This document shows, piece by piece, positions 560 to 63,897 of a stretch of DNA of 64,000 nt. Position 1 is the first letter of the stretch. Every line of letters starts with the position of its first letter. Under the pieces are notes generated by a model. The model ran no database searches, was not told the DNA's origin, and saw nothing but the letters and a program-made list of their open reading frames with translations. The stretch is from Chiloscyllium plagiosum (Eukaryota): the NCBI RefSeq assembly GCF_004010195.1, contig NC_057718.1, forward strand, positions 76,892,079-76,956,078, read 5' to 3'. The translations under genes were made by a program, and so were the position numbers.

Positions 560-919
560 TCGAGGAGAAAGTGAGGTCTGCAGACGCTGGAGATCAAAGC
601 TGAAACTTTATTGCTGGAACAGCACAGCAGGTCAGGCAGCATCTAGGGAACAGAAGATTCGACGTTTCGGGCACATGCCCTTCTTCAGGAATGAGCAGAG
701 AGTGTTCAGCAGGAGAAGCTTCTTCAAGGAAGGCATCCTTGTAAGAGGATTCGCAGTAGGTTGAAATCTTCGAGGAGAAAGTGAGGTCTGCAGACGCTGG
801 AGATCAAAGCTGAAACTTTATTGCTGGAACAGCAATAAGGGCATGTGCCCGAAACGTCGAATCTTCTGTTCCCTAGATGCTGCCTGACCTGCTGTGCTGT
901 TCCAGCAATAAAGTTTCAG
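560..919. mobile_element. Penelope-like element (family A) mini-insertion with tandem plus inverted pseudo-LTR
   Basis: 15-bp TSD CAAAGTTAGAAATCA (545-559 / 920-934). Direct repeat 560-624 = 770-834. Inverted repeat 599-682 vs 837-920. Confidence 0.85.
657..692 (-). ncRNA. Minimal type I hammerhead ribozyme motif (PLE family A)
   Basis: Minus strand reads AUUC-CUGAAGA-A-GGGC AUGU GCCC-GAAA-CG-UC-GAAU: helix I AUUC/GAAU, 4-bp helix II, palindromic ACGU helix III, GUC cleavage triplet. Confidence 0.8.
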
Positions 920-1419
920 CAAAGTTAGAAATCACACAATGCCAGGTTGTAGACCAACAGGTTTATTTGGAAGCACCGGGTCACCGTTCCAAGTTGCCTT
1001 CTGACCTTTTAAGAGTAACCATTTGCTAATTCAAACTGAAACAAAAAAATCCATTTCCCTCCATTTTAAACAATCATAAAAATTGCAAAAGCATTGGAAG
1101 AAAAATCACAATATTATCACTTAATGTTATAATTACTGCTTTCTTCTTTCACCCCGTAGAACTCTTGTGCATCTAGCCCTTGAGGTGACTGGTCTGTGTT
1201 TCGTTCTATTTTTAGAAGTTCACATTAAAACATTCAAATACAGAGAAGAACTATTAAGTTAATCAATATCTTGCCTTACTATTTTATTGACTGAGCTGTT
1301 TCTCATTTGGTCTTAACTGTATTGATTTTGATAAGCCAACAGTAGAATTCATATTATAAAACAAAACTTGTCTTTTGTATTTTTATTCTTTTTAAAATTG
1401 TGAACTGAAATAATAAATA

Positions 1420-2295
1420 ATTGTTTTAAAAGCAGTGTTTGGCTAGGATTGTTGCATGTTTTGAAAAGCAAATAACCTAACATTCATGGCAAGCACCATT
1501 TAAATAGCTGTTTGACCAAGGAGTAATTAAAGTTTAGGTTGCAGACTAACTGGAGCTGAGGGATTCTGTATTCACTTGAATCTTCGGTGGGCAACAAGAA
1601 GTTGATTTGTCTGTTGGCTAGGACCAGTTGTCGATGACCAGGGCCTTTTTTTTGTCTTTCAATAAGAGTATGATTGGTTCTTAGGCAAACTAAACAGATT
1701 GGGCCTGGGAACAAAACATAGAGAAGTGATCAGAGCTTCACCAGCTCAGGAGCTATCTCTTTGTTGTCTGTAGTCCAAAACCCATTTTAAACATGAATAT
1801 TCCACACTGTAAGTAATCTAATCTAATCTGATGAGTCAGATACCACTTTTGTAAGTTAAATAGTCACCCTTGCAAACCATTGGAAGCATTTAGATAAGAA
1901 AAACCGTGGGAAAGAAAACTTCTTTAGCAAGAACGAGCTCAAAAGATTTTGTGAACAAAGGCTACAGAACTGTTTTTTTCACTTTTCTCTTCACCCATTC
2001 CCTGCCTGTCTCTGTCTGTGTGTGTATTTAAGGGGGAGTTTATAAGCGTCTTAGTTTTAATTTGTTGTGTTAAATGCTAAGGTTTATAACTTTACCTGTA
2101 GCTAGCCTCTAATTGTTTGGAATAAATAGTATTTGTAGTTAAGTTCAGAAGCCTGGTGTGTGCTTTCTTCACCCTTTTGAAAATCAGAAAAATATTGGAG
2201 AATTTTCATGTACTTTTTAAAAACCTTTAATTTTTGTGACTACTCTGGAAGTAGCGGGCCTTCATTTGCAGTGCTGTACCCCAGAGTCATGACAA
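1420..2295 (+). mobile_element. Possible solo LTR containing a short HE1/CR1 tail fragment (1801-1828)
   Basis: Ends in ...GTCATGACA, with TATA-like TATTTAA near 2025 and AATAAA at 2121. No TSD or 5' boundary confirmed. Confidence 0.3.
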
Positions 2296-3712
2296 CGTTG
2301 AATTAAACACAGAACACTGTGTAAACACAGACACAAGTTTCTTCCTCCTGTCCAAGGGGAACAGTATTATGCTACAATCCCCTACTGCTCACAAATTGAT
2401 CTCCAGTGATGTTTCAGAGAATTAGAATGGAGAGCTTTCACTTGAGACTCCATCAATATAATTGCCTCTCAGCTGGAATGCATCCATTGTCTCTCTCTTG
2501 TTGGGAGGTCCCTTTAAATATTGTTATCAGCAAGTGGAATGGATCATGATCATACCCATCCATTGATTGTTCAGGAAGTGGAGTGCTTATGATATGGCTT
2601 GGATAAAGAGCCATTATAAAACTTATTCACGATTTTAAGAATCCTGACCTGACTTGCAGCAAGCGAGTCCAAAAGTGAAAATTCATCCTGGTGTTTCTGT
2701 GGTAGTTTTGTTTTTGCCAGTGGGTTTGTACATCAGTAATACATGAATAAGTTATGACTATCAAAAAGCTTAAGCATCAGCATCTGATGAAGTGGTTTTC
2801 ACACCTAAATATTATGCGCATTGAATTGATTGCTTGAATTGTTTGAGCCCTGGCACCTAATAAGATGGAAAAGGAAACTTCACTGAAATGGCTACTCGGT
2901 GCTTTCCTAACCTGGATAAAACTTCTTGCTAAGATAAAGTTAATACATTGGCAAAAAGAGCTAAATACATCTGTTATACAAAGGCAGCATAACAAGTTAG
3001 TAACCACAGACTGTTGTAATTCATTTAAATGTTGGACAGCTGTTGAAAAAGATATGGTGGCTTGTTTATGTTTTATTTGCTTAAACAAATAGCTGAGAAT
3101 CACATATAGTGTTAAAGTGGATTTGACTGTAACTCATGCTCTCAGGACCACATCACTAAACTGACTTACTGGGCTGAATTTTACCAGAAACTGTCTGAGT
3201 CAATTTTGGCAAGTTTCATGGAGTCAGGTACACACTTTTATTTAAAAGGGTGGTAAAGGGAGTATGTGGCATCTTTTTCTTTAATAATTGTGACCTAAAG
3301 CATATGAGCAGGAAAGATATGCTGGAATTATGTACAACACGATAAATAGTGAGAAGGACACTGGGGCTCCAAAGAGAAATAAATAAGTTGCAGGTGAAGT
3401 ATAAGGTCACTTACGCATATCACTTGTATGTGTTGATGTTAAGAAGGTGTACTCATGTAAGGAATGCAGAAAATTATCAAGCAGGTACATTAAGTAATTA
3501 AGGTGAATAGCATGTTGGCCTTTATTGACTAATCACTTGACATCATACAACATCAGTCAATAAGTTGCGAGCTAATAAATGTTTGGTGACTGTTGAAATG
3601 ATGATCGCAGAAGAAACACATAAGTACAACATAGGATGTCCAGCGTTGGTGCAGAGACCTGTATGAAGTGGCTCAACCTGGCCAACCAAGAATGAAGCCC
3701 TTTAAAAGAAGT

Positions 3713-3810
3713 CAAACAGACCCTTCGGTCCAACCCATCCATGCCGCCCAGATATCCCCACTCAATCTAGTCTCACCTGCCAGCACCCAGCCCATATCTC
3801 TCCAAACCCT
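3713..3810 (-). mobile_element. CR1 LINE 3' tail fragment
   Basis: AAACAGACCCTTCGGTCCAACCC...CTAGTCTCACCTGCCAGCACC matches the reverse complement of CR1 3' ends at 47450-47560 and 59820-59930. Confidence 0.75.
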
Positions 3811-4149
3811 AATGATTGAAGCTATATGATGTCACCAAATTTGTGCCAAGAGGGTAGATTTCTCTCCGTGCTCAATACAATGACAAGAATGAGATTCTGG
3901 AGTGCCAGACCATGGAAAGCAAGCAAATGCTACTCAGCCAGAGCAATCCAAAGCTTGGATTGTTAATCCTCGACATGCCAAAAGAGCTTTGCAACATGTT
4001 GCAGCATGCCAAACCATTGACAGCAGAGCAGACCTTCGAGGAGAACAACGCCCTATTTACATTGTTAAAATGTCTTCCTGTAGAATATCTTGAAGTAGAT
4101 GAGAATGTAAGAGCAATTCACCATCTGCTAAGGAAAGTTCCACCTGCCC

Positions 4150-5080
4150 TCCAGGCTAGCCCGACAAGGTAGAGAACAGAAAAGAAGGGAGTAACTGACA
4201 AAGTGGCAACTTAGACTAGATTAGCAGTACCAAAGCAGAAAAAATATCTGAAAAGCTAAGTATGGGCAACCACCCAAAGAATCTCTATGAAGCTCTGGAG
4301 ATATCTCGCTAGTCTATGCCAACCATCAAAAGAATTTTGCCACAATTTTAAAAGTCAAAAATCTTACTACCCTCGATGGAAAGGATGGTTTTTGGCAAGT
4401 AAAACTGGACAAAACAGTAAATTTCCAATTACGTTCTGGATACCATTTGGGAGATACAGATGATTACATGTGCCATTTGACGTTCCCATGGCTGCAGAGG
4501 AGCATCAGCATGAACAATGTGAGATAGGTAGTGGGCTTAGTGGAGTAGAAACTATAGTGGATGATCTGTGAGTTTATTGATGCAGAGATACAATGAAAGA
4601 AACCATTTCTGATCATGGTCAAAGTGTGATGCGACTGCTAGAGTTTGCCAGATGAACCTGAAGTTGAGTAAGAAAAAAATTACATTAAAGATGCCTGAAG
4701 TCAAGTGCATAGGCTTAGTACTGACAGCAAGAAGTCTTCACCAGCAACCCTAAAAGGTGATAGCTCCAGTGTGATGTGACAGCTAACACCTGTAAATGCA
4801 ATCTAATGATTTGTTTGATTCATGCGGTATTTAGCAGATTTCTTACCCAAATTATCTTTGGAATTGAGAACTATTGTACTAACTGGTGACCACAATATAC
4901 AGTTGTATTGGGGTATGGAACAAAAAGCAATATTCACTAAAATCAACCAACTAATGATACCAATGCCATTCTGAAATACTATGATGTAAATGATTAAGTC
5001 ACTATACAGTGTGACATCCATAGATATTACTTGAAGCAAGCCTAGTGTAGCATGGCTGTATTTGCATCTAAAACCGTAAA
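4150..5080 (+). mobile_element. Decayed Gypsy/Ty3 pol (RT) remnant
   Basis: Frameshifted translation gives TLDGKDGFWQVKLD, TFWIPFGRYR*LHVPFD and ETIVDDL, which are Gypsy RT motifs. Confidence 0.7.
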
Positions 5081-11790: not shown

Positions 11791-12586
11791 AATGTAAATG
11801 CTTGTTTTTTAGTTTGATTGTCCTGATATTTATTACATAATTGGTTATCGTAACATTATGAGATCTTCACTAATGTGATTCATTGATTGCAAGTTTCAAA
11901 CAAATATCATCAGATACTAATTGATATAGTCTTACAAAAGTGTAAAGAAAATGTGATGAGTAGTATTCTCCAAGCCTCAGCTTTTCACTATATCAATTAA
12001 TCACCTTCATGAAGGACTATGTTGTTGACTATTAAAGTTTGTGGATGACGCTAAATCAGGACATACAAGTTCAAATAGGATCAAGAAATTCAAAGGGATA
12101 TAAGTAACTTGAGATCAGTGGGCAGACTGGTGATCTATTTCAATATTAAATAATCACTTATAATCCAAGAAAAGCAAATTGTTATTTTTTTTAATGGCAT
12201 TAGACTTAGAAACTGGCAGAGCAAAGTGCCTTAGATAACAAGGTGGACAAGCCACTTAAAGCCAATTCAAAGAAACAAAAGAACTACAACCTTGAGATGC
12301 CATAGCATCCCTATCTCTGGGCCAGAAGTTGTGGATTTAAGCCCCCCTCAGGTCTTGGATGATAAGCACAGGAGACTTTCCTGGTCAAACTGAACATTGT
12401 GACAACTCCAGCACAGAGCCATGCCAATCTAAAAGACTCCAAGTGCAGCTTCTTGAGATGAGCAGGAATAACCCTCATTCTGAGATGTTATTAAAATAAA
12501 ACCAAATGCTGGGGAAACTCAGGCAGAATCCATACAGAGAGAAATAGAGATAGTATTTTAAGTTTAGATGGATGTTCATAAATTGT

Positions 12587-12895
12587 GGGTGGCACCGTGG
12601 TTAGCACTGCTGCCTCACAGCGCCAGAGACCCGAGTTCAATTCCCGCCTCAGGCGACTGACTGTGTGGAGTTTGCACATTCTCCCCGTGTCTGCGTGGTT
12701 TCCTCCGGGTGCTCCAGTTTCCTCCCACAGTCCAAAGATGTGCATGTCAGGTGAATTGGCCATGCTAAATTGCCCGTAGTGTTAGGTAAGGGGTAAATGT
12801 AGGGGTATGGGTGGGTTGCGCTTCGGCGGGGCGGTGTGGACTTGTTGGGCCGAAGGGCCTGTTTCCACACTGTAATGTAATCTAATCTAATCTAA
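12587..12895 (+). mobile_element. HE1-type V-SINE
   Basis: tRNA-like head with B box GAGTTCAATTCC, V-domain TGTGTGGAGTTTGCACATTCTCCCCGTGTCTGCGTGG, CR1-derived tail GGGCCGAAGGGCCTGTTTCC and (TAATC)n. Confidence 0.92.
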
Positions 12896-15998: not shown

Positions 15999-16282
15999 GG
16001 AACCAAAACAGTCATTGCTGGAAAAGCTCAGCAGGTCTGGCAGCAGCTGTGAAGAGAAATCAGAATCAAAGTTTTAAGTCTGATGATCCTTTGTCAGAAT
16101 TGATAGTATCTAGGAAAATGTTGGTTATATGTCGGGTAGGAGGTAAGGAGTAAACAATAGGTGGGGTTAGAGCCCAAAGAGAGAAAAGAGCAGTTGGACA
16201 AAGGATTGGATAGCGATCTGCTTAGGAGAATAGCTGTTAATGGAAACTGTTTGTGACTAACAATAGGTAGTATGTAATGGCA
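15999..16282 (-). mobile_element. Older PLE pseudo-LTR (family C), host of the 16283 insertion
   Basis: TTGCTGGAAAAGCTCAGCAGGTCTGGCAGCA is a diverged version of the family-A end. The sequence resumes after the TSD at 17406. Confidence 0.55.
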
Positions 16283-17405
16283 AAAGTGAGGACTGCGGAT
16301 GCTGAAGATCAGAGTCTAGACTAGAGTGGTGCTGGAAAGCAGAGCAGGTCAGGCAGCATCAGAGGAGCAGGAAAATCAACGTTTTGGGCAAAAGCCCTTC
16401 ATCAGGAATGAAGGCAGGGACCCTCCGGGGTGGAGAGATAAATGGGAGGGGTGGGGCTGGGCAAAGGTAGCTAAGAGTACAATAGGTGAATGGGGGCGGG
16501 GATGAAGGTGATAGGTCAGAGAGGAGGGTGGAGCGGATAGGTGGGAAGGAAGATTGGCAGGTAGGACAGGTCATGAGGATGATGCTGAGCTGGAAGGTTG
16601 GAACTGGGGTAAGGTGGGGAAAGGGGAAATGAGGAAACTGGTGAAGTCCACATTGATGCCCTGGGGTTGAAGTGTTCTGAGGTGGAAGATGAGACATTCT
16701 TCCTCCAGGCATCAGGTGGTGAGGGAATAACGGTGGAGGAGGCCCAGTACCTGTATGCCCTCAGCAGAGTGGGAGGGGGAGTTGAAATGTTGTGCCATGG
16801 GGTGGTGGGGTTGATTGTTGCGGGTGTCCCAGAGATGTTCCCTAAAGTGGTCTGCGAGAAGGCTTTCAGTCTCCCCAATGTAAAGGAGACTGCGTCGGGA
16901 GCACCGGATGCAATAAATGACATTGATGGATGTGCAGGTGAAACTTTGATGGATGTGGAAGGTTCCTTTGGGGCCTTGGTTGGAGATGAGGGGGTTGGGC
17001 ACAGGTTTTGCAATTCCTGCGGTGGCAGGGGAAGGTGTCAGGAGGGGAGGGTGGGTTGTTTGGGGGGTGTGGACCTGATCAGGTAGTCACAGAGGGAACG
17101 GTCTTTGCAGAAAGTGGAAAGGAGTGGGGAGGGAAGTATATCCCTGGTGGAGGGGTCTGTTTAGAGGTGGCGGAAATGTTGGCGGATGATGCGGTTTATG
17201 CGAAGGTTGGTAGGGTGGAAGGTGAGGACCAGGGGGGGTTCTGTCCTTGTTGCAGTTGGAGGGGTGGGGTTTGAGGGCAGAGGTGCGGGACGTGGACACG
17301 CTGCGTTGGAGGGCATCTTCAACCATTTGGGAAGGGAAAAACATTGATTCTCCTGCTCCTCAGATGCTGCCTAACCTGCTGTGCTTTTCCAGCACCACTC
17401 TAATC
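16283..17405 (-). mobile_element. Penelope-like element (family A), 5'-truncated, GIY-YIG endonuclease region with inverted pseudo-LTR piece
   Basis: 15-bp TSD TAGTATGTAATGGCA (16268-16282 / 17406-17420). ORF 16712-17002 has NVIYCIRC..LLYIGET..HFNSPSHS (GIY-YIG). Inverted pLTR at 17341-17405. The hammerhead at about 16375-16409 is decayed (GAAA>AAAA). Confidence 0.92.
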
Positions 17406-17910
17406 TAGTATGTAATGGCAGACTATGTGAATGACAACCTTTATTGGGGGTCAGTTGAAGCATGACACACTCATGGAAGCATACTGCTGTTTGTAACCGA
17501 ATAGTTTAATGTGAACTCACACGTTACTGTCTGTGTGGACGTAATATTTGTATATATTAGTGAGCTATAATAAAAGTCTGATTCTCTATTACGACATTAT
17601 CCATATTTTATTCCTTATGCTGTGAAAGATAACACATACGTTACAGCATCAGTTAAAGACGGCCAGCTGGTGGCAAAATCCACATCAAGCTTAAGATAAT
17701 AGGTTGTATTTGCATATTAATTTGCATTTATAAGATTTTGTTGTCCCTCTATTGCCATGCAGTTTTATTCCAACATCTAAGAATTGGGTTTCAAGACAAA
17801 CTGGTTGAGGAGAAGGCAAGGTCAAGGGCTGTTTTTAAGCTTAGGCTTCTTTAGAACTCTGTTTATTCCTTATTAAAGCTACGTGCACGTGGTAATCAGC
17901 AACTGGGCAA

Positions 17911-18845
17911 TAGACAAAAGGTGCAGGAGTAGGCCATTCATTCTGATCCTGGATTAGTGGTGCTGGAAGAGCACAGCAATTCAGGCAGCATCCGAGGACA
18001 GGCAAAATCGACGTTTCGGGCAAAAGCCGAAGGGCTTTTGCCCGAAACGTCGATTTTGCCTGTCCTCGGATGCTGCCTGAATTGCTGTGCTCTTCCAGCA
18101 CCACTAATCCAGAATCTGGTTTCCAGCATCTGCAGTCATTGTTTTTACCTCATTCATTCTGATCATCCACAATCGGTATCCTGTTCCTACCTTATCCCCA
18201 TAACCCTTGATTCCAATATCTTTAAGAACCCTATCCAGCTCTTTCTTGAAAGTATCCAGAGATTTAGCCTCCACTGCCTTCAGGGGCAGAGCATTCCATA
18301 CACCCACCACTCTCTGGGTGAAGAAGTTTCTCCTCAACTCTGCTCTAAATGGTATACCCCTTATTTTTAAACTGTGTCCTCTCGTTCTGGACTTACCCAT
18401 CAGCAGAAACATGCTTCCTGCTTCCAGAGTGTTGAATCCTTTAATAATCTTATGCATCTCAATCAGATCCCCTCTCATCCTTCTAAACTCAAGTGTATAC
18501 AAGCCCAGTTGCTCCAATCTTTCGACATAGGTCGTCCGCCATTCCGGGAATTAACCTTGTGAACCTATGCTGCACTCTGTCAATAGCCAGAATGTCCTTC
18601 CTCAAATTTGGAGACCAAAATTGCACACACTACTCCAGGTGCGGGTCTCACCAGGGCCCTGTACAGCTGCAGAAGGACCTCTTTGCTCCTATATTCAATT
18701 CCTCTTGTTATGAAGACCAGCATGCCATTAGCTTTCTTCACTGTCTGCTGTACCTGCATGCTTGTTTTCATTGACTGACTTATAAGAACACCTAGATCTC
18801 ATTGTACTTACCCTTTACCTAACTTGACTCCATTTAGATAGTATT
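17911..18845 (-). mobile_element. CR1 LINE 3' fragment
   Basis: ORFs 18580-18771 (KKANGMLVFITRGIEYRSKEVLLQLYRALVRP) and 18104-18517 (LGLYTLEFRRMRGDLIE..RTRGHSLK..RRNFFTQRVV). Confidence 0.92.
17949..18150. mobile_element. Fold-back PLE family-A mini-element: 80-bp-arm palindrome
   Basis: Arms 17949-18028 and 18033-18112 with loop GAAG. 14-bp TSD CATTCATTCTGATC (17935-17948 / 18151-18164). Confidence 0.92.
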
Positions 18846-19343: not shown

Positions 19344-19527
19344 AAGTGAGGAATGCAGATGCTGGAGATCAGAGCTGAAAGTGTGTTGCTGGAAAAGCGC
19401 AGCAGGTCAGGCAGCATCCAAGGAGCAGGAGAATCGATGTTTCAGGCATGAGCCCTTCTTTCCTGATGAAGGGCTCATGCCTGAAATATCGATTCTCCTG
19501 ATCCTTGGATGCTGCCTGACCTGCTGC
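19344..19527. mobile_element. Fold-back PLE family-A mini-element with one hammerhead motif (+, about 19460-19494)
   Basis: 60-bp arms 19399-19458 and 19468-19527. The + strand reads UUC-CUGAUGA-A-GGGC UCAU GCCU-GAAA-UA-UC-GAUU. Confidence 0.85.
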
Positions 19528-21153
19528 AATGTTCACTTTTAACAATGGTCGACCTATCCCTCATACCTGACAATGCTCACCATGCCTCAGCTATCCACCT
19601 CCCCCCCCACCCCACTCCCACTCCCAGACAATGCCCACACCCTTAATCCCAATACTGTTCATCTCTGCCTGTCAGGTCTTACTGCCCTCCTTAAGCTCAT
19701 CCTCCACCCCTCAATCTCCTGTGTTCCAGTGGAAAAAAACCCTGCATATCCTCATAACCCCAAATGGAGTGTACATGTTGTCACAAGGGAGAATGAACAT
19801 GATGGGTAGATGAGGTAAGCATTGGCTGGAGAGAACGTAAAAATTTCCTGCAATGTTGCTTCAGGCAGGTAAACATTGTCAGGAGTGGTGATTAAATTAT
19901 TAGGTGGTTGGCTGGGTGAACGCTGTGTGAACAGGGTTGAAAATTGTTGAGAGGGTTAAGTATTATTGAGAGATTGATGACTATTCTTGACAGGTGTTTG
20001 AACATTATTGGGTATTGTTGGAAGGGGTAAATAAATGTTATCAGAGAGATACTGAGCAATATCAATGTGGGTGAATATTAAAAACATACAAACAAGGAAC
20101 CAGAGTCGGCCATTCAGCCCAGCGAGCAGGCTCTGCTATTCAATAAGGCTGTGGCTGATCTGATTTTAACCTCATCTTTACAGTCCTGCATATTTCCAAT
20201 AATCTTTTATCCACTTCCTAATCAAGAATATACCTATCTCTCCCTTATAAATATTTAAAGATTCTCTATCTATTGCCTGGTGAGGAAGGGAAATCTAAAT
20301 ACCCTCAACCTTCTTGGAGAAAGAAAATCTCATCTCTGTTTTAAATGGGCTCACCCTTATTTTTAAATTATGACCTCTACTTCTAAATTGTCCTTTCAAC
20401 ATCCATCCAGTCATGACCCCTAACGATCTTATGTTTCAATTGAGTCACATTTGACTCTTAGTAAACCATCTCTGAACTGCTTCCAATGCATCAACATCCT
20501 TCCGTATGTATGATAAGTACAGTACACAGTATTCCAAATGAGGTTTCCCCAATGCTCTGTATAACTGAAGCATAACACCCCTGCTCTTGCATTTAATTCC
20601 CCTCACAATAAAACATAACGTTCTGTTAGTTTTTCTGATTACTTGCTGTACCTGCATACTAATCTATAATTCATGCACTGGGATACCCAGGTATTTCTGC
20701 CTCGCAGAGCTCTGCAAACTCTCATTATTAAGATAATATCCTAATTTTTATTCTTTCTGTCAAAATGGACTATTTCACACTTTCCCTCATTGTACTCCAT
20801 TTGCCAGATTTTGGCCCACTCACTTAACCCTTTATAGCTTTATGTCCTCTTCACAACTTGTGTTCCTATCTTTGTGTCGTCACAAATTTAGCTACCATAC
20901 CTTCAATTGCTTGTTCCAAATGATTTATATAGATTAAAGACTTGTGGCCCCAGAACTGACCCCAATGGCACACCACTTGCGACATCCTGCCAGCCTGAAA
21001 AAAATCATCTATTCTCATTCTTTGCTTTCTGTGAGCAAGCTAATTTTCTACCCATGCCAATAGACTACCCCCCTACATAATGAGATTTTATTTCCTGCAA
21101 AGTTAAAAATCACACAACACCAGGTTATAGTCCAACAGGTTTAATTGGAAGCA

Positions 21154-21188
21154 CACTAGCTTTCGGAGTGACGCTCCTTCATCAGGTG
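21154..21188 (-). ncRNA. Minimal type I hammerhead ribozyme motif (PLE family B)
   Basis: Minus strand reads CAC-CUGAUGA-A-GGAG CGUCA CUCC-GAAA-GC-UA-GUG. Confidence 0.75.
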
Positions 21189-21294
21189 ATAGTGGAGGCC
21201 TCAATCGTAACACAGAATTTATAGCAAAAATTTACAGTGTGATGTAACTGAATTTTTGCTATAAATTCTGTGTTACGATCGAGCCCTCCACTAT

Positions 21295-21329
21295 CACCTG
21301 ATGAAGGAGCATCGCTCCGAAAGCTAGTG
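21295..21329 (+). ncRNA. Minimal type I hammerhead ribozyme motif (PLE family B)
   Basis: CAC-CUGAUGA-A-GGAGC AUC GCUCC-GAAA-GC-UA-GUG: helix I CAC/GUG, palindromic AGCU helix III, CUA cleavage triplet. Confidence 0.8.
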
Positions 21330-22782: not shown

Positions 22783-23110
22783 GGGCGGCACGGTGGCACA
22801 GTGGTTAGCACTGCTGCCTCGCAGCGCCAGAGACCCGGGTTCAATTCCCGACTCAGGCGACTGACTGTGTGGAGTTTGCACGTTCTCCCCGTGTCTGCGT
22901 GGGTTTCCTCCGGGGGCTCCGGTTTCCTCCCACAGTCCAAAGATGTGCAAGTCAGGTGAATTGGCCATGCTAAATTGCCCGTAGTGTTAAGTAAAGGGGT
23001 AAATTTAGGGGTATGGGTGGGTTACGCTTCGGCGGGTCGGTGTGGACTTGTTGGGCCGAAGGGCCTGTTTCCACACTGTAAGTAATCTAAGTAATCTAAT
23101 CTAATCTAAT
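22783..23110 (+). mobile_element. HE1-type V-SINE, full length, CpG-intact (young)
   Basis: A box TGGCACAGTGG, B box GGTTCAATTCC, V-domain, CR1 tail, (TAATC)n. Confidence 0.95.
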
Positions 23111-23124
23111 TGTTGTCATGTAGT

Positions 23125-44520: not shown

Positions 44521-45699
44521 TAACTGACTGCACAGGTGATTTACTGGTGGTGGTTAATAGATAAAAGCAAAAAAAAAGAAAAAATGTCACAGTGATTTGA
44601 TGATGAACAAAAATATGTTCATTTGTGTGAAAGAGCACTTCTGGATATATGAAAAAAAGAAAATTTCTAAATCCATTACGTATTGTTTTAATTGGTAAAA
44701 GGAAGTTCAGTATTTTTCTTAATTCAAACACAACTTTAAGGATGTAGTTGATTATTCCATTCTCTGTTTATGAAATGACGTTGTTTTCAGTTTCCTTGAT
44801 GTAAAGTGGTTGCTGTTTCAATAGTTAATGGCAACGAAACCTGTGCATAATATGTGCACATATTCCACAAAGATATTTTGATGCTATACCCACTTAAAAA
44901 TGTAGAATCAGACTTCAGTGATGACTATTCACTCAATACTATTCACTCAATAGAGCAATTGATATGGATTTTGCAACAGATACATCTGCAGCTGAGTACT
45001 GCAAATACACATAAAAAGTTGAGCACTGAATATTTCTGCAATCTGAATGGATCCCAAAGTAGAGAACTTGTCTTAGCTATAAAGTAGCTTAGCAGAATGA
45101 ATTCATCAGTTTATTGTTTGTGACTTGTTCTGTTTCTTACTAACATGCAGATTCCAAGGACATCATCTGCAGAAAATCAGTACTTGCTGACAAAATATAT
45201 AATATTTAACTTGTCCTTCATATTGAATGATAGGTCACACACCCAAGCATCACTCACAATTATGGTCTTTGAAAGGGAGAATTTTATACAGCAGGAGGAT
45301 TTTTTAAAGCCGTTTCACCCATACCCAATTCTTTGAAGCAGTTATTCACTAAATCTAAATCCCAGTCTTCAGAAATGAGTCCTTATGTTTAAAAAATAAC
45401 TTATTATGTAACTATTTATATAATGCATTTTAAAAAGCTGTTTTTAGAATTAGAATTAGGTTTTATTGTTGCATATGCTTAAGTATAGGGATACAGGTGT
45501 ACAGTGAAAAGTGTATACAGTTGCCATTTCTGGTATCATCCTAGGTACAAAGATGCCTTGCTACAAAATCTTAGGTATAAATTAGAAAATTAAAAGTTCA
45601 CCATTACAGTCCTTCTACAGCAGCAAGAGAGAGAAAAAAAACAGACCTGTCCAAGTTGAGCTTCACCTCGAAGCTGTGAGTCCCATGAGTTCGTGCTGG

Positions 45700-46770
45700 G
45701 ACCAACTTCATGTCTGTGCTGGGCCTCACTTCGTATCTGTGCTGGGCCTCACTTCGGGTCTGTGCTGGGAATCACTTCAGGTCTGTGCTGGGCCTCACTT
45801 CATGTCTGTGCTGGGCCTCACTTCGGGTCTGTTCTGGGCCTCACTTCGGATCTGTTCTGGGCCTCACTTCGAGTCTGTTCTTGGAATCACTTCAGGTTTG
45901 TGCTGGGCCTCACTTCATGTCTGTGCTGGACCTCACTTCCAGTCTTTTCTGGGCCTCACTTCGGGTCTGTTCTGGGCCTCACTTCGGGTCTGTGCTGGTA
46001 CTCACTTCGGGTCTGTGCTGGCCCTCACTTCGGGGCTGTTCTGGGCTGTTCTGGGCCTCACTTCAGGTCTGTGCTGGGACTCACTTCGGGTCTGTGGTGG
46101 GCCTCACTTCAGGTCTGTGCTGGTCCTCACTTCGGGTCTGTGCTGGGCCTCACTTCGGGTCTGTGCTGGGAATCACTTCAGGTCTGTGCTGGGTCTCACT
46201 TCGAGTCTGTGCTGGGCCTCACTTCATGTCTGTGTTGGGCCTCACTTCGGGTCTGTGCTGGGCCTCACTTGGGGTCTGTTCTGGGCCTCACTTCGGATCT
46301 GTTCTGGGCCTCACTTCGAGTTTGTTCTGGGAATCACTTCAGGTTTGTGCTGGACCTCACTTCATGTCTGTGCTGGACCTCACTTCGGGTCTTTTCTGGG
46401 CCTCACTTCGGGTCTGTTCTGGGCCTCACTTCGGATCTGTTCTGGGCCTCACTTCGAGTTTGTTCTGGGAATCACTTCAGGTTTGTGCTGGACCTCACTT
46501 CATGTCTGTGCTGGACCTCACTTCGGGTCTTTTCTGGGCCTCACTTCGGGTCTGTTCTGGGCCTCACTTCAGGTCTGTGCTGGGACTCACTTCAGGTTTG
46601 TGCTGGACCTCACTTCATGTCTGTGCTGGACCTCACTTCGGGTCTTTTCTGGGCCTCACTTCGGGTCTGTTCTGGGCTTCACTTCGGGTCTGTGCTGGGA
46701 CTCACTTCGGGTCTGTGGTGGGCCTCACTTCGGGGCTGTTCTGGGCCTCACTTCGGGTCTGTGCTGGGAC
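45700..46770. repeat. 23-bp minisatellite, left array
   Basis: Unit GCTGGGCCTCACTTCGGGTCTGT, about 46 copies. 138-bp (6-unit) higher-order repeat at 46281-46418 and 46419-46556. Confidence 0.97.
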
Positions 46771-47590
46771 TTTAATTCAGGTAAATGCGAGGTGCTGCAT
46801 TTTGGGAAAGCAAATCTTAGCAGGACTTATACACTTAATGGTAAGGTCCTAGGGCGTGTTGCTGAACAAAGAGACCTTGGAGTGCAGGTTCATAGCTCCT
46901 TGAAAGTGGAGTCGCAGGTTGATAGGATAGTGAAGAAGGTGTTTGGTATGCTTTCCTTTATCAGTCAGAGTATTGAGTACAGGAGTTGGGAGGTCATGTT
47001 GCGGCGGTACAGGACATTGCTTAGATCAATATTGGAATAATTTGTGCAATTCTGGTCTCCTTCCTATTGGAAAGATGTTGTGAAACTTGAAAGGGTTCAG
47101 AAAAGATTTACAAGGATGTTTCTGGGTTGGAGGATTTGAGCTATGGGGAGAGGTTGAATAGGTTGAGGCTGTTTTCCCTGGAGCGTCGGAGGCTGAGGGG
47201 TGACCTTATAGAGGTTTACAAAGTTTTGAGGGGCATGGATAGGATAAATAGACAAAGTCTTTTCCCTGGGGTGGGAGAGTCCAGAACTACAGGGCCTAGG
47301 TTTAGGGTGAGAGGGGAAAGATATAAAAGAGACCTAAGGGGCAACTTTTTCACGCAGAGTGTAGTACATGTATGGAATGAGCTGCCAGAGAAAGTGGTGG
47401 ATGCTGTTACAATTGCAACATTTAGAAGGCATTTGGATGGGTATATGAATAGGAAGGGTTTGGAGGGATATGGGCCGGGTGCTGGCAGGTGGGACGAGAT
47501 TGGGTTGGAATATCTGGTAAGCATGGACGGGTTGGACTGAATGGTCTGTTTCCATGCTGTATATCTCTATGACTCTATGTCTCTGTGACT
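46771..47590 (+). mobile_element. CR1 LINE 3' fragment inserted in the minisatellite
   Basis: FNSGKCEVLHFG..EQRDLGV..RRLRGDLIEVYK motifs and (CTATGACT)n tail. Confidence 0.95.
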
Positions 47591-48330
47591 TTGTGCTGGG
47601 CCTCATTTCGTATCTGTACTGGGCGTTACTTCAGGTCTGTGCTGGACCTCACTTCGAGTCTATACTGGACCTCACTTCATGTCTGTGCTGGGCCTTACTT
47701 CGTGTCTGTGCCGGGCCTGACTTCGAGTCCGCACTGGGCCTCACTTTGTGTCCATGCTGGACCTTACTTCGTGTCCATGCTGGTCCTCATTTCGTGTACA
47801 TGCTGGGCCTAACTTTGAATCCACACTGGGCCTCATTTTGGAGTCTGCACTGAGCCTCACTTTGAGTCCATGCTGGGCTTCACTTTGAGTCTGCGCTCAG
47901 CCTCACTTCGAGTCCACACTGGGCCTCACTTTGAGTCCGTGTTGGGCTTCACTTCGAGTCCGCATTGGGCCTCACTTTGAGTCCACTCTGGGCTTCACTT
48001 CGAGTCAGTGCTGGGCCTCATTTTGAGTCCACGCTGGGCCTCATTTTGAGTCCACGCTGGGCCTCACTTTGAGTCCGTGCTGGGCCTCACTTCGAGTCTG
48101 CACTGGGCCTCACATTGAGTCCGTGCTGGGCCTCACTTCGAGTCTGCGTTGGGCCTCACTTCGAGTCTCCGTTTGGCCTCACTTCGAGTCCACGCTGGGC
48201 CTCACTTTGAGCCTGCACTGGGCCTCACTTTGAGTCTGCTCTAGGCTTCACTTTGAGTCTGTGCTGGGCCTCTCTTTGAATCCATGCTAGGCCTAAATTC
48301 AAGTCTGTACTGGGCCTGACTTCGGGTCCC
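47591..48330. repeat. 23-bp minisatellite, right array (more diverged variant)
   Basis: Units drift to GCTGGGCCTCACTTTGAGTCCAC/GT, about 32 copies. Confidence 0.95.
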
Positions 48331-53449: not shown

Positions 53450-54890
53450 ACAAGTTAGAAGCTATTTTTAAAGACATTAGAGCAGGGCAGGTGGAACGAT
53501 TAGGGTAATAAGGCAAAAGAAACAGTGATTTGTGAAAGGGAAATCATGTTCACCAATTTATTGGAGTAACTTGCACTGAATAAAGGGAAACTGGTGGTTT
53601 TAATGTACTTAGATTTCCAGAGACCATTTGATTGGTGCTACATAAATGATTATTGTAAAAATAAAAACTGATGATGTAGGGGTAATGTATTGACATTGTT
53701 AGAAGATTGGCTGGCTAGCAGGAAACTGAAAGTAGGCATAAGTGGATCTTTTTGTAGTTGGCAACGTGAGACAAATGTTCTTTATATTTATCTGTGGGAT
53801 GTGGACATTGCTGGCGGGCAGCATCTATTGCTAGTCCCTTGTTACCCTTGAAAGGTGGTGGTGAGCTGCCTTTTTGAACTGGCGTAGTCCATTTGCTGTG
53901 AGTTGATCCATGATATCCTTACAAAGGGAATTCTAGGATTTTGACTCAGTCACCGTGAAAGAACATATGAAATGATATATTTCCAAGTCAGAATGGTGAT
54001 GCACAGGGATTGGAGTATCCTCGAGCATGAATTGCAAAGTTAGGCATGCAGGTCCAGCAGATATTGAGAAAAGCTAATAGAATCTTATTGCTTAGATTGA
54101 GGATGAATGAATACAAAGATGGAAGGTTATGATTCAGTTATATACAGAAAAACAAAGATCAAAGAAAATGTACAGCCAGGAACAGGCCCTTCGGCCCTCT
54201 AAGTCTGAGCCGATACAAATCCACTGTCTAAACCTGTCATCCAATTCCTAAGCATCTACATTCCTCTGCTTTCCACCCACTCATGCATCTGTCCAGACAC
54301 ACCTTAAATGAATTTACCATGCCTGCCTCTACTACCTCTGCTGGCAATATATTCCAGCTGTATTCCTGATGAAGGGCTTTTGCCTGAAAGGTCGATTTTA
54401 CTGCTCCTCGGATGCTGCCTGAACTGCTGTGCTTTTCCAGCACCACTCTAATCTAGATTCTGGTTTCCAGCATCTGCAGTCATTGTTTTTACCTAATGTG
54501 TTCCAGGCACCTACCACCCTCTGTGTAAAGTACTTTCCATGTATACCCCCCTTAAACTTTTCACCTCTCACCTTGAATGCGTGACCTCTCGTTATTGAAT
54601 CCCTCACCCTGGTAAAAAGCTTATCTCTATCCACTCTGTCTATATCCTTCATGATATTGTAGACCTCAATCAGGTCCCCCTCAATCTCTTTTTTTTTCTA
54701 ATGAAAACAATCCTAACCTACTCAACCTCTCTTCATAGCTAGCACCTTCCATACAAGGCACCCTCTGCAAAGCGTCCACATCCTTTTGCATCACATCAAT
54801 AGCATTGGTCAAACCATGTCTGGAGTACTGTTTGCAATATTAGCTTGATTTTAAGGAAGAATTTAAATGTTTTGTAAGTAGTTCAGAGAT
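53450..54890. mobile_element. Nested LINE cluster: old CR1 (+) interrupted by a LINE tail (-, 53780-54000) and a CR1 3' end (-, 54146-54790)
   Basis: KGKSCSPIYW and YLDFQ..FD motifs (+). ORF 54398-54652 (-) has TRGHAFKVRG..YFTQRVVGAWN. Confidence 0.75.
54358..54494 (+). mobile_element. PLE family-A pseudo-LTR starting at the hammerhead motif (54362-54397)
   Basis: AUUC-CUGAUGA-A-GGGC UUUU GCCU-GAAA-GG-UC-GAUU. Decayed TSD AATATATTCCAG / AATGTGTTCCAG (54346-54357 / 54495-54506). Confidence 0.85.
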
Positions 54891-57800: not shown

Positions 57801-57946
57801 AGGTGTGACCACCTCCTGGCACAATGATTCCAGGTGGTAAAAACAATGACTGCAGAGGCTGGAAGCCAGATTCTGGATCAGTGGTGCTGGAAGAGCACAG
57901 CAGTTCAGGCAGCATCCGAGGACAGGCAAAATCTGAGGACAGGCAA

Positions 57947-57982
57947 AATCGACGTTTCGGGCAAAAGCCCTTCATCAGGAAT
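57947..57982 (-). ncRNA. Minimal type I hammerhead ribozyme motif (PLE family A)
   Basis: Minus strand reads AUUC-CUGAUGA-A-GGGC UUUU GCCC-GAAA-CG-UC-GAUU. Confidence 0.75.
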
Positions 57983-58020
57983 AAAGGCAGAGAGCCTGAA
58001 GCGTGGAGAGATAAGCTAGA

Positions 58021-58529
58021 NNNNNNNNNNNNNNNNNNNNNNNNNNNNNNNNNNNNNNNNNNNNNNNNNNNNNNNNNNNNNNNNNNNNNNNNNNNNNNNN
58101 NNNNNNNNNNNNNNNNNNNNNNNNNNNNNNNNNNNNNNNNNNNNNNNNNNNNNNNNNNNNNNNNNNNNNNNNNNNNNNNNNNNNNNNNNNNNNNNNNNNN
58201 NNNNNNNNNNNNNNNNNNNNNNNNNNNNNNNNNNNNNNNNNNNNNNNNNNNNNNNNNNNNNNNNNNNNNNNNNNNNNNNNNNNNNNNNNNNNNNNNNNNN
58301 NNNNNNNNNNNNNNNNNNNNNNNNNNNNNNNNNNNNNNNNNNNNNNNNNNNNNNNNNNNNNNNNNNNNNNNNNNNNNNNNNNNNNNNNNNNNNNNNNNNN
58401 NNNNNNNNNNNNNNNNNNNNNNNNNNNNNNNNNNNNNNNNNNNNNNNNNNNNNNNNNNNNNNNNNNNNNNNNNNNNNNNNNNNNNNNNNNNNNNNNNNNN
58501 NNNNNNNNNNNNNNNNNNNNNNNNNNNNN
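58021..58529. other. Assembly gap (509 N)
   Basis: Run of n characters. Confidence 1.
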
Positions 58530-58882
58530 GGGAGATATATCCCTGGTGGTGGGGTCTGTTTGGAGGTGGCGGAAATGTCGGCGGATGATTTGGTTTATGG
58601 GAAGGTTGGTAGGGTGGAAGGTGAGCACCAGGGGCGTTCTGTCCTTGTTGCGGTTGGAGGGGTTGGGTCTGAGGGCGGAGATGTGGGATGTGGACGACGC
58701 TGGCTTGATGGTGAGGTTGGGATTGGAGCAGAGGGATTGGAGGGCTGCGCGTTGTGAGGGTGAGAGGTTGGAGTGGGGGACCTTCATCTCCTCCCCCACT
58801 GACCTATTGTACTCTATGCTACTCTCTCCCCACCCCCACCCTCCTCTAGCTTATCTCTCCACGCTTCAGGCTCTCTGCCTTT

Positions 58883-58918
58883 ATTCCTGATGAAGGGCTT
58901 TTGCCCGAAACGTCGATT
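58883..58918 (+). ncRNA. Minimal type I hammerhead ribozyme motif (PLE family A)
   Basis: AUUC-CUGAUGA-A-GGGC UUUU GCCC-GAAA-CG-UC-GAUU. Core is intact but helix I is weak (U.U mismatch). Confidence 0.75.
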
Positions 58919-59429
58919 TTGCCTGTCCTCGGATTTTGCCTGTCCTCGGATTTTGCCTGTCCTTGGATGCTGCCTGAACTGCTGTGCTCTTCCAGCACCA
59001 CTTATCCAGACAATGATTCCAGGTAGCTATTCACCACCAAGATGCCTTGCATTGTCTGAAGTTCAGTGACACTGAGTCAAAGATCCTCCAGCCACAGACA
59101 TTTATAGTAAATTAGTTTTCCTTGGGTCATGTAGCTGTCCATGAGTATGCACATATTGCAGATGCCATACATTTTCTGCTCTGCCATCTTTGAGGTGTTT
59201 CATGAATTAACTACTTTACTGATGAAATTTTAATTATGTCTCTGGTCCTGTGTGTGCTTAGATTCTTATTGTTTTAATGAAGTTTTAAATCTTGAAATTC
59301 CAACATTAAGGTAAAAAAGGAAATGCTCTAATAGATCCTCCAATCTGATAGCTTTTATGACCATTAGTAAACTTCAATACTGCTAATAAACTTTACAACT
59401 AAATGTACCTGATGCACTAGCGAATCAAC

Positions 59430-60286
59430 CCTCCTATCGGAAGGATATTGTGAAACTTGAAAGGACTCAGGAAAGATTTACAAGGATGTTGCCAGGGCTG
59501 GAGGATTTGAGCATAAGGAGCGGCTGAATAGGCAGGGGCTGTTTTTCCTGGAGCATTGGAGGCTGAGGGGTGACCTTATAGAGGTTTATAAACTATGAGG
59601 GGCATGGGATAGGATAAATAGACAAAGTCTTTTTCCTGGGGTCGGGGAGTCCAGAACTAGAGGGCATAGGTTTAGAGTGAGAGGGGAAAGATATAAAAGA
59701 GACCTAAGGGGCAACTTGTTCACGCAGAGGATAGTACGTGTATGGAATGAGCTGCCAGAGGATGTGGTGGAGGCTGGTATAATTGCAACATTTAAGAGGC
59801 ATTTGGATGGGTATATGAATGGGAAGGGTTTGGAGGGATATGGGCTGGGTGCTGGCAGGTGGGACTAGATTGGGTTGAGATATCTGGTTGGCATGGACAG
59901 GTTGGACTGAAGGGTCTGTTTCCATGCTGTACATCTCTATGACTCCATGACAGATAAATGGACAAGGTCTTTTCCCTGGGGTGGGGGAATCCAGAACAAG
60001 AGGGCATAGGTTTAGGGTGAGAGGGGTTAGATATAAAAGGGACCTAAGGGGCAACTTTTTCACGCAGAGACTGGTGTGCGTATGGAACGAGCTGCCAGAG
60101 GAAGTGGTGGAGGCTATCACAATTACAACATTTAAAAGGCATCTGGATAGATATATGAATAGGAAGGGTTTAGAGTGATATGGGCCTAGTACTGGCAAAT
60201 GGGACTAGATTAGGTTAGGATATCTGGTCGGCATGGACAAGTTGGACCAAAGAGTCTATTTCTGTGCTGTACATCTCTATGACTCT
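59430..60286 (+). mobile_element. CR1 3' end followed by a second, shorter CR1 3' end in tandem
   Basis: About 59612-59950 is repeated, diverged, at about 59953-60286. Both end in CTCTATGACTC. Confidence 0.92.
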
Positions 60287-60639
60287 CAAACAAAACAGTC
60301 ATTTTCTTCTTTTCTTAAGACAAATCTGCCTGGTTTAAAACTTTTTGAAAAGCTCAGCAGATCACTATCAATTATCATTAGCTGGCACATTCTCCATATC
60401 AATATCTCTACAAATCAGAGTCCAGCTGCAAACCAATCAGTACTCCCTTCTCATATAGTATCTGTGTTGTTTTCCCTTTTCTTTGGTATTTTTTGCAAAT
60501 TGCCCTGATGAATGCTAAATGAAAATGTTTGACAATGTGTATTATTTCAACTATGTCTATCCTTTAACAAAAGATTTACATTTAACAATACGTACCCATG
60601 AAGTGAGAGTTATTGCCTTCTACATCAAGGGTGAGGCCT

Positions 60640-61560
60640 CAAAGAACCCCAACAAAACTGAAGTGAATGAAATTTAGGGAATTGCTCTCCACTGACTGGA
60701 TTCAGACCTAGCATAAGGTAAAGATAGTTATGGATTTTTAGGTCAATTATCTCAGTGCTAGAATATCAGGGGTTTCTCAGGGCAGTGCCCAAGGCTCAAT
60801 TATATTTTGTTGCTTTATCAATGAGATTCTTTGCATTATAAGTTCAGAAGTGGTGACATTTACTGACAATTTCACGATGTTCGGTTCCATCTTCACAAAA
60901 TAGAATCTAATCATTTTATCTTGATGTTCAATGGCATACCACCGCTGAATCCCCACCATCAACATGATTATCATTGAGAAGAATCTGAACTGAGCCAGCC
61001 ATAGAAACGTTGTGGCTATAGGAGCTGCTCAGGGACTGGGAATCCTGTAACTCACCTATCGATTCCCCAAAGCCTATACACCTCTACAATTTGTGATTGT
61101 GATTAATACCCTCCATTTTCCAGGATGTGTGTGGCTCCAACAACACAATCAATCTCGACACAATCCAGGACAAAACAGCCCCTTGACCAACACTCATCCA
61201 CCATCTTAAATGTTCTCAGTCTTCACCACAGTGCACTGTGGGAGCAATATGTACCACGTGCAAGATAACTGGGACAAACCAGGACCCTTCCAAATGCACA
61301 AGCTATAACCCCAAATAGCAAAAGCAGCGGCCTTTCAGGGACATAGATTCCCCTCCACGCCACACTCTATCCAAACTTGGATATGTGTTGTTGTTTCTTC
61401 ACAGTTGTTGGTCAAACTTCTGGGAGCTCTTTTCCTAGTGATATTGTGGGTGTGCCTACACCAGAAGGACCGCAGTGATTTAAGAAGGCATGACATTATC
61501 TTACTCTCAAAGGAAGCTTGGAAAGGGGGATAATGCTGACCTTGACAACAATGTTTACAT
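60640..61560 (+). mobile_element. Old LINE (CR1/L2-class) remnant
   Basis: GVSQGS..GS..F..FINE and FTD RT-like remnants, plus the same 3' tail as the 8672 and 53780 copies. Confidence 0.55.
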
Positions 61561-63199
61561 TGTACGAATAAATTTAGAAACATGTTTAATGTATGTCAGT
61601 TGATTTCACTTCGGCTTTTGACTAGTTTACTGAAGATAGAAGAAGAGGGGCAAGTCTTGTAACACTGTTAAATGTAACATCATCAATAACCTTAAGCTAT
61701 CATAAAAGCATAAGGATTGAATCATGATTTATTATAAATATGGAAAATACAAAGACTGCATTGAAGAAGCAATTATGAGGGAAGATGGGGCCCCCATCAG
61801 TTTAGTATCTTGTCTGACAGTGTTGCACTGGGGTTTTCAGTTAAATGAAGAGGCTGGATTGAGTTCAGCCAATTGTGGCAGAAAAGATGGCAGCAGGACC
61901 CACTTGGCCATGGGACAGGCCCTGCATGGCAAAAACATTTCCAAATTAAGTCAGAGGGAAGATGGAGCTGTCATGAGATTCTGATTAATGGCAAGGGGTT
62001 TAGATCATTCAGTTGGTTAATGGGTTCTTCTACATTGTGTCCCCCGTAGTCAAAATTCTGTTCCAATAAAGAGACCTGAACTAGACAGGGGGTGTCGGCT
62101 AAAAGCCACGCTTACATACCACCCTCCTTCCCCATGTCTTTGCAATTTTCATCCTTCCTGCCTTCACTCATCCTCAGGCTGGGTGCTTTGATGATCCTGG
62201 ACATCTGGTAATTTCACTGCTACCAGCTGCCAGCTGCCATCTAACGTTGTCCGCACACAGACTTGCCCACCTCTGACCCCCTGGCAGCTCTTGACACACA
62301 GGACTTCTTTAACTGAGAGTCTCAGTCACAAAGACGGCCTGACATAGGCCAACTAGGTGCCTGAAGGGTGCTTGATTCCATCTATGACCTCCCCTTGGAA
62401 CTGAAAAGGTCATGCTTCCAGTTCTTCAGATGATGGGCTCCTGTATACTTGATGAAATTCTCAGCCATGAACACAAATCATTGTGGTCGATTTCCTCTCG
62501 GGGTGGAAAAGTGTTGTTTCCAGGTCATGACCCCAACCCAGGATCAAAGCAGTCACAAGTCCTGATGCTCACAGAGATGCCCTGTAAATTGGCTGAATGG
62601 GAAGTTGAACAGCCACTAATGTGCTGCAGAAGCAGGAATGCAGATGGATCTGAGCAAATGCAGACTTAGTTTAAAATGATCAGAGCAGCCATTACTGTTG
62701 CTGCCACTTTACTCATTAAATTGCAATAATAGATATGGAACAGGTAAGGCAGAGGGCTGGGGAAGAGCTATCCCTTACAACATCATTGCATATCCAGAAG
62801 TCTTCTTTGAAGTACTGAGTAAGAGGAGGTGGGTCCTCATTCCAATGTCCGTCCTCCCAAACTAAGCCGGTGTAGGTTGGAGGTATAAGTAGCTGGGAAC
62901 ATGAGCAGACAGTGTATGATTGGGAGGAACTGAATGCAGAGTTGAAGAGGGTTAATTTACCTCTTCACCCTGACAAGGTGAGTGCATTGGCAGGCTTTCA
63001 TTGCAGGTCTCTGGGTATTCAATCTCCACAAACTCTCCAGCTGAGAAGCCTGAAGGTGTATCTGCTCCTGGACATGGATAATTGTGCCTTGGGTATTTCC
63101 TGAACCTTTAACAAGGCTTAAAGCGATTGTGCTGTTGAGGACTGCCAGCACTGATACCTCCAGATCCATGTCTCAATGGATCCATAGTCATAGAGACCT

Positions 63200-63897
63200 C
63201 ACCCCACACCGCCATCCAAGGCCCCAAAGGATCCCTCCACATCTGGCAAAGAAAACCTCATCTACTGTGTCCATTGCTCTCAATGTAGTCTCCTCTACCT
63301 TGGGAAGGCAGGACACCAACTTGCTAAACGTTTCAGAGAACATATCCAGGACACATCCACTAAACAATCCACCACTCTGTGACTGACCACTTCAACTCCC
63401 CCTCCCATTCCGCCAACGACATGCAAGTCCTGGGTCTCTTTCACTGCCAAATCCTCGCCACCCAACGACAGGAGGAAGAACATTTCATCTTCCACCTTGG
63501 GACCATCCAACCACATAGAATCAATGTCGATTTCACAGTTTCCTCATCTCACTTTCCCCCAGCTTATCCCAGATCTAACCCTCCAAATCGGCATCGCCTT
63601 CTTGAACTGTCCTACTTGTCCATCTTCGTTCCCACCTATCCACTCCACCTTCCTCTGACTTAACACCATCACCACCCAGTTTCGAATACTTATTGCATTC
63701 CTAGCTACTTTCCCTCAGCCCCACCCTGATCCATTCCTCTCTCAGCCCCCCCATAGCCACCTATCCCACATTCCTGATGAAGAGCTTATGCTTGAAACAT
63801 CGAATCTCCTGTGCCTTGGATGTTGCCTGACCGGTTGCACTTTTCCAGCACCACATTTTGACTCTGATAACCTGCATCGGCTGCCCTCACTTTCTCC
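63200..63897 (+). mobile_element. Penelope-like element 3' fragment (GIY-YIG plus pseudo-LTR)
   Basis: NLIYCVHCSQCSLLYLG and HFNSPSHSANDMQVLGL motifs. The pLTR ends CCTCACTTTCTCC. Confidence 0.9.
63770..63805 (+). ncRNA. Minimal hammerhead ribozyme motif, CpG-decayed
   Basis: AUUC-CUGAUGA-A-GAGC UUAU GCUU-GAAA-CA-UC-GAAU. The helix III palindrome is lost. Confidence 0.6.

Follow-up and report, generated by a model that had tools for sequence, protein, structure and literature searches.

Hammerhead modules in the window

The 64,000-nt stretch of the Chiloscyllium plagiosum genome analysed here (RefSeq assembly GCF_004010195.1, contig NC_057718.1, positions 76,892,079 to 76,956,078, forward strand; hereafter the window) carries many short modules with hammerhead ribozyme motifs. 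These motifs are of the minimal type I kind and lie in the pseudo-long terminal repeats (pLTRs) of two families, A and B, of endonuclease-bearing Penelope-like elements (PLEs) of the Neptune/Nematis type. Frames for a reverse transcriptase (RT) and a GIY-YIG endonuclease lie upstream of the hammerhead in both families, bearing out the PLE origin that an earlier sequence-only reading of the window had proposed. The element order is RT, linker, GIY-YIG, 3' untranslated region (UTR), hammerhead and tail, with the hammerhead placed in the 3' pLTR. Both families possess a CX4CxxC linker (L018 for family A, P0003 for family B) and, at the C terminus, a GIY-YIG endonuclease with CCHH residues. The Pfam matches to RVT_1 (E=1.6e-6) and GIY-YIG (E=7e-4) are both weak, below the curated cut-offs, and PDB sequence searches with P0001 and P0002 gave no hit. 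A C-terminal GIY-YIG domain, the CCHH motif and a CX2-5CxxC linker mark Neptune/Nematis PLEs (PMC8557442), with which our families also share 5' truncation, an inverted partner and an optional tail. The placement, made by domain features, is to either Neptune or Nematis.

We use C3 of the core as the reference position for copies. The eight copies listed as intact in the sequence-only reading have C3 at 688 (-), 19463 (+), 21185 (-), 21298 (+), 54366 (+), 57978 (-), 58887 (+) and 63774 (+), and all eight indeed hold CUGANGA, the extra A, helix II, GAAA and UH. The three copies regarded as decayed are so: G12 is changed to A in the copy at 16406 (-), both C3 and G12 are missing at 25391 (+), and both boxes are broken near 27660 (-). 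The description of the stems held in part. The helix III palindrome is present in six of the eight copies but not at 54366 (AGGU) or 63774 (ACAU); in the 19463 copy decay has turned it into AUAU, a sequence that can still pair with itself. Helix I of the form AUUC/GAAU occurs in two of the six family A window copies (688 and 63774) but is not the family norm, which is AUUC/GAUU, the third pair being a U.U mismatch (59/71 copies; U-A in 6/71); most of 80 family B copies show CAC/GUG. A helix II of the form GAGC/GCUU does occur, but is most simply read as GAGC/GCUC after CpG decay.

A profile search of the window gave 20 matches, of which 18 are separate hammerhead/tail modules, or one per 3.5 kb; the earlier estimate of one per 6-8 kb was thus too low. 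The modules overlooked were 816-910 (+), 913-985 (-), 16014-16074 (-), 17339-17419 (+), the two arms of 17940-18154, and 19344-19472 (-). At the left end of the window, a fully intact family A minimal hammerhead (657-692, -; AUUC/GAAU, GGGC/GCCC, ACGU, C17; module 557-705) has an inverted partner cut off within the core (816-920, +), and a family B tail fragment with AATAAA but no core lies at 913-985 (-). An old tail remnant related to family A (16014-16074, -) precedes a 5'-truncated family A element (16275-17338, -), which comprises an RT-thumb/linker/GIY-YIG remnant (16748-17338), 3' UTR, the dead hammerhead with C3 at 16406 and a tail, and whose 5' end is abutted by an inverted core-less partner (17339-17419, +). 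Two palindromic family A mini-insertions follow, the one near-perfect with both arms cut within the core (17940-18154), the other (19344-19534) having a plus arm (C3 19463) that keeps its core despite CpG decay and a minus arm without CUGA. Family B is represented by an inverted pair, namely a hammerhead with a single C.A mismatch in helix II (21154-21188, -; module 21095-21258, ATTAAA in the tail) and its intact partner (21295-21329, +; CAC/GUG, GGAGC/GCUCC, AGCU, A17; module 21249-21423). Old family B material consists of a B-type element end at 24745-25513 (+), with a GIY-YIG remnant (24745-25049), 3' UTR, dead hammerhead near 25388 and tail, and of a mini-insertion at 27562-27704 (-), whose core is broken and AATAAA kept.

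The remaining modules all belong to family A. An endonuclease/3' UTR remnant (37451-37918, +) ends about 46 nt short of the hammerhead; the solo module 54358-54496 holds a hammerhead with intact boxes and the broken palindrome AGGU (54362-54397, +). An intact hammerhead with the U.U mismatch in helix I (57947-57982, -) lies in the direct pLTR of an open reading frame (ORF) remnant (58530-58697), and another intact one (58883-58918, +) in the inverted, 5'-truncated partner (58780-59025). An older element end (63145-63894, +) combines an endonuclease remnant (63145-63349), a hammerhead (63770-63805; GAGC/GCUU, ACAU) and a tail. The motif was said to share the strand of the GIY-YIG frame, and it does so in all four remnants that adjoin a direct pLTR (16.3-17.3 kb, -; 24.7-25.5 kb, +; 57.8-58.7 kb, -, across a run of N; 63.1-63.9 kb, +). 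Inverted partners such as the 58887 copy are on the strand opposite to the PLE frame. The inverted insertion at 57833-59025 also contains a 17-nt tandem duplication in the tails of both arms, with unequal numbers of units.

Genome-wide abundance and decay of the copies

A strict descriptor, which also requires a helix I of at least 2 bp and, at 15.1-16.1, either a palindrome or a short hairpin, matched six times in the window, compared with a mean of 0.13 in 60 Markov controls, none of which had the palindrome. The two listed copies failing it are those at 54366 and 63774, and the 19463 copy passes only via its self-complementary AUAU. An Rfam scan of the window found no hammerhead among six hits at E<=1; the hits on palindromes were microRNA models, all below the gathering score, and were rejected. 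In the 3.56-Gb genome, exact patterns matched 86,254 times for family A, 12,191 for family B, 1,892 for a family C (some of them CpG-decayed) and 443 for a family D, amounting to about 100,000 exact intact cores, and the reversed-pattern controls for the four families gave no match. Such a number of intact cores allows genome statistics to address what PLE hammerheads do. We also took a random sample of 60 blocks of 10 kb at even spacing (573 kb after removal of N). In these the strict descriptor matched 22 times, or once per 26 kb, with two matches in ten controls, and the profiles detected 122 modules, which make up 2.7% of the bases and amount to one per 4.7 kb if the two arms of a palindrome are scored separately. 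The window is thus a typical part of the genome, if slightly rich.

Among 149 descriptor matches (loci partly pattern-selected), the extra base between positions 9 and 10.1, which the search left free, is A in 142, the G10.1-C11.1 pair is present, and the 15.1-16.1 stretch is CG or GC in 121, with 23 further cases being products of CpG decay. Besides A and B, at least three more hammerhead families with different stems were noticed: family C (L084:9410, L097:9817, L099, L101, L108), in which the extra base is U and helix II is longer, family D (L080, L082, L114) and family E (L083, L103).

Across families A to D, N7 (U, A or G) and N17 (C, A or U) vary and the stems differ, while the core boxes are invariant. 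At the second pair of helix II, we counted 86,254 G-C, 1,305 A.C, 1,055 G.U and 358 A-U copies genome-wide, against 16 double changes expected under independence. The stems therefore covary, as the sequence-only reading had suggested they might be checked for, albeit through few independent events. The fixed core, together with the compensatory change of helix II in subfamilies, indicates that the source elements were under selection.

The copies themselves appear to follow a different course. The A.C mismatch is no rarer than the G.U wobble, which fits unselected mutation after insertion. We compared shared and rare changes in long copies that were not chosen on their hammerhead (33 of family A, 37 of family B; 60 pattern-selected loci excluded). 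Changes common to at least three long copies are absent from the core in both families, whereas the flanks hold 236 (A) and 40 (B). Rare changes in family B are about as frequent in the core (8/369) as in the flanks (79/2,430; p=0.33). In 19 young family A copies, private changes number 2/190 in the core, 2/190 in the stems and 12/1,114 in the flanks, so that core and stems together (4/380) match the flank cells. Individual young copies decay neutrally, with core and stems changing at the rate of the flanks.

Templates, transcripts and the role of the hammerhead

The 5' ends of tail-bearing copies in the random blocks concentrate at the front edge of the motif: 60 of 92 family A and 14 of 27 family B copies (74/119) begin between -13 and +6 of C3. 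Only one of the 92 and none of the 27 (1/119) has its start 3 nt or less from the cut site (+28/+29). Alignment places these ends to within a few bases, and the counts may lack short decayed copies; six ends defined by target-site duplications (TSDs) fall at -6 to +5, agreeing with the alignment ends. Since such copies hold hammerhead and tail together, their RNA template was uncut at that hammerhead. The 3' ends form two broad groups, at about +76 to +104 and +105 to +134, as might be expected from two RT start sites in the tail like those of the Anolis Poseidon element PAc (PMC11167929). For the starts at the front edge, the cause we favour, at roughly even odds, is that the RNA itself has its 5' end there; possible alternatives are that RT stalls, that the endonuclease trims at a nearby ATT, or that the second strand folds back during its synthesis. 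A spliced first exon, as with the Drosophila intron end, was rejected, as the flanks upstream are unrelated sequences or inverted copies and the TSDs abut the motif.

An inverted partner accompanies at least 51 of 93 short family A and at least 15 of 23 short family B copies, and four inverted pairs folded from the window yielded hairpins of -105 to -220 kcal/mol. Monomers of family A with U7 (58883-58918 and others) are predicted to prefer an extended hairpin between core and palindrome (-11.4 kcal/mol) to the hammerhead (-5.2 kcal/mol). This hairpin, which the A7 copy at 657 lacks, could serve as a built-in off state.

Both families are present in RNA. Four runs were aligned to L170:3600-4200, which holds a family A copy (-) and a family B copy (+); two of them, X1 and X2, consist of contigs and show presence only. 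A run search returned no match recorded as RNA, and the raw-read runs were chosen by species label. Run X20, a poly(A) single-cell library labelled with the species of the best DNA matches, gave 3,799 reads there (about 2% of the run). Its reads over family B are strongly sense-strand and cross the hammerhead site uncut; depth does not drop at the cut (4084|4085), and nowhere do many reads start or end. Among the loose ends shown, runs of A follow position 4113 in 337 reads and 4116 in 410 (747 in total, with 635 more loose ends not itemised), and the two groups most likely represent one poly(A) site near +59. The site lies about 30 nt behind the cut and about 14 nt after ATTAAA (4096-4101), before a GU-rich stretch. 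A signal hexamer, then the cleavage point, then a GU-rich stretch is the standard layout of a poly(A) signal. ATTAAA or AATAAA is found at this place in 88 of 113 family B copies, but in only 3 of 80 family A tails. Many loci contribute to these reads, which may be transcripts of the host.

In the genome, no copy carries A's at the site (the search pattern leaves out the variant with C found among the 337 reads), whereas 41,463 copies run on. The A's are therefore untemplated, and the polyadenylated RNA was not used as a template. The genome statistics thus tell us that templates were uncut and, for family B, were not the polyadenylated RNA. Tails with the family B poly(A) signal were seen at L170:4096-4145 (+) and, in the window, at 21095-21150, 27562-27660 and 913-985 (all -). 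Locus L170 also contains a family A mini-copy (3670-3840) that interrupts a family B element in its 3' UTR, flanked by a repeat of about 16 nt, and RNA reads skipping this mini-copy were seen.

We consider it very likely that the hammerheads are ribozymes of source elements whose reverse-transcription templates are uncut, and that the dispersed copies are inert by-products of insertion. In the source elements, selection would maintain the motif, and cutting would require two tandem pLTRs to form a dimer; the minimal type I architecture given in the sequence-only reading is confirmed, and the need for a dimer accords with published work. Cleavage would probably be slow and aided by a protein of the element, as the results in PMC4209133 and PMC11167929 suggest. 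Reverse transcription would begin about 90 or 125 nt behind C3, inside the tail, with RNA uncut at the hammerhead as its template; in family B this RNA would run past the poly(A) site. RT would usually halt at the front edge of the motif, often with an inverted second arm, and the inserted copies, single or paired in hairpins, would then decay neutrally. The sequence-only reading had called the motifs functional processing sites of the source elements. Given the neutral decay, the ends away from the cut site, the inverted hairpin pairs and the uncut family B reads, that term fits the source elements at best, not the window copies.

Several observations weigh against this explanation. (i) Of 50 loci selected for a protein match, none held an intact full-length element with both pLTRs, because runs of N interrupt most long copies, and the source elements are therefore something we infer; the long "open frames" met in the search for one proved to be runs of N. 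(ii) Most of the A-U matches listed have the loop and N7 in common, so that the 358 copies are probably one subfamily with a single compensatory event. (iii) Rare changes in the 33 long family A copies are fewer in the core (2/330) than in the flanks (67/2,180; p=0.006), a deficit that we read as subfamily differences counted as rare, because it is gone in the young subset. (iv) Only 6 of 42 solo family A and none of 8 solo family B copies showed TSDs. (v) The RNA evidence comes from one run of one sample, the sister run X21 having given no reads at the locus, and a cleavage product, at about 30 nt, would be too short to appear in these data.

A more elaborate proposal, less likely than not, is that the family B pLTR is built like a retroviral U3-R-U5. 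Transcription would start at the front edge, R would comprise the uncut hammerhead and the working poly(A) signal, and RT would prime in the tail beyond the poly(A) site. Short run-off cDNAs, primed in the 5' copy and resembling strong-stop DNA, would insert in their hundreds of thousands. The ribozyme, as a switch for quality control, would destroy or release RNAs that are not templates, and the more than 41,000 intact poly(A) signals dispersed in this way would end host transcripts throughout the genome. At least 41,463 exact copies of the family B signal region exist in the genome; if the poly(A) site holds in more runs, this PLE family would be a large source of dispersed terminators in this genome.

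Among the rival explanations, the one surviving best, though unlikely, is that the motif is kept for a non-catalytic role, as a protein-binding or pLTR promoter element, and hardly ever cuts. Every template observed was uncut, catalytic mutants had no effect on insertion in vitro (PMC11167929), and Naiad PLEs spread without canonical hammerheads (PMC8557442). Nevertheless, it is exactly the catalytic core that is fixed in four families, while N7 and N17 vary and the stems covary, and the anole motif does cleave, with rescue by C3G/G8C (PMC11167929). Still less probable is that the dispersed copies are themselves active, cutting RNA of the host or the elements, either as monomers or in trans dimers that the huge copy number would favour. 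The six strict matches in the window, the roughly 100,000 exact cores, the presence of both families in RNA and the ability of any two ACGU or any two AGCU copies to pair in helix III would be in keeping with such activity. Against it stand the neutral decay, the rarity of insertions ending at the cut (1/119), the unbroken read depth without a pile-up of read ends, the folding of inverted pairs at -105 to -220 kcal/mol and the preference of U7-type monomers for the non-hammerhead hairpin, and published monomers were inactive and dimers weak (PMC4209133). That the short copies form a separate non-autonomous family, retrozyme-like or similar to miniature inverted-repeat transposable elements, spreading via circles cut by the hammerhead, is very improbable: most copies are modules of 90-140 nt, often palindromic, and animal retrozymes derive from PLE pLTRs (10.64898/2026.07.22.740005), but the window has no hammerhead tandem array (0/16 tandem-repeat rows), copy ends lie off the cut site, short and long copies have subfamily sequences in common, and palindrome centres vary from copy to copy.

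Published relatives and other contents of the window

The motif, the extra base, the palindrome and the location in pLTRs have been in print since 2014, when minimal hammerheads were described in the pLTRs of metazoan PLEs, including Xena, Poseidon and Neptune of fish (PMC4209133), so that the kind is already known, and the extra A and the palindrome add no novelty. As in that report, the shark motif is of type I without a closed helix III, has palindromic positions 15.2-16.2, one extra base between A9 and G10.1 and a G10.1-C11.1 pair, and occurs in several families per genome, mostly solo or close together on opposite strands; families with compensatory changes are likewise described there. 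What differs is the very short helix I (2 bp, U.U and 1 bp, or 3 bp) and the number of copies, about 100,000 exact cores here versus about 4,000 in the coelacanth and about 9,000 in Xenopus, although the search methods differ. The searchable files of its supplement name no shark, and a literature search on Penelope, hammerhead and shark returned no relevant paper.

PAc, studied in vitro, resembles our families in using uncut RNA as a template and in showing no RNA-sequencing ends at the cut site, but it is of the Penelope/Poseidon type and has been assayed, whereas the present families have Neptune/Nematis-type linkers and are known from sequence (PMC11167929). The parts consulted of PMC11167929 describe no poly(A) site, and none in PLE pLTRs was found in the literature searched, including PMC2377424 and PMC3846280, in which subscription papers were thinly covered. 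The family B site is the one addition to the published picture that seems worth following, though it may already be in print. Animal non-LTR retrozymes, reported in one chondrichthyan, also carry type I hammerheads related to those of PLE pLTRs, but as tandem arrays with a motif per unit instead of solo or inverted copies (10.64898/2026.07.22.740005).

No host gene could be recognised in the window: a search of 139 of the 164 non-repeat ORFs, plus one more ORF, gave no Pfam family above cut-off. A 104-aa stop-free frame at 3858-4172 (+) lies in non-repeat DNA and has no Pfam or Atlas match. A dispersed repeat resembling a short interspersed element has at least five copies, among them 12577-12735, 22781-23205, 28272-28430 and 30275-30511. 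RT remnants of long interspersed elements (LINEs), which we take to be CR1-like, occur at 27694-31600, 38005-41074, 46767-47566 and 59429-60292. A 340-nt tandem duplication (59613-60285) lies among them, and two arrays of 23-nt units (45569-46768 and 47592-48329), with stop-free frames of 370-480 aa, flank one LINE RT fragment. Broken RT-like and gag-like frames on the minus strand, at 36233-36592 and 41763-42158, have the look of an LTR retrotransposon, presumably Gypsy-like.

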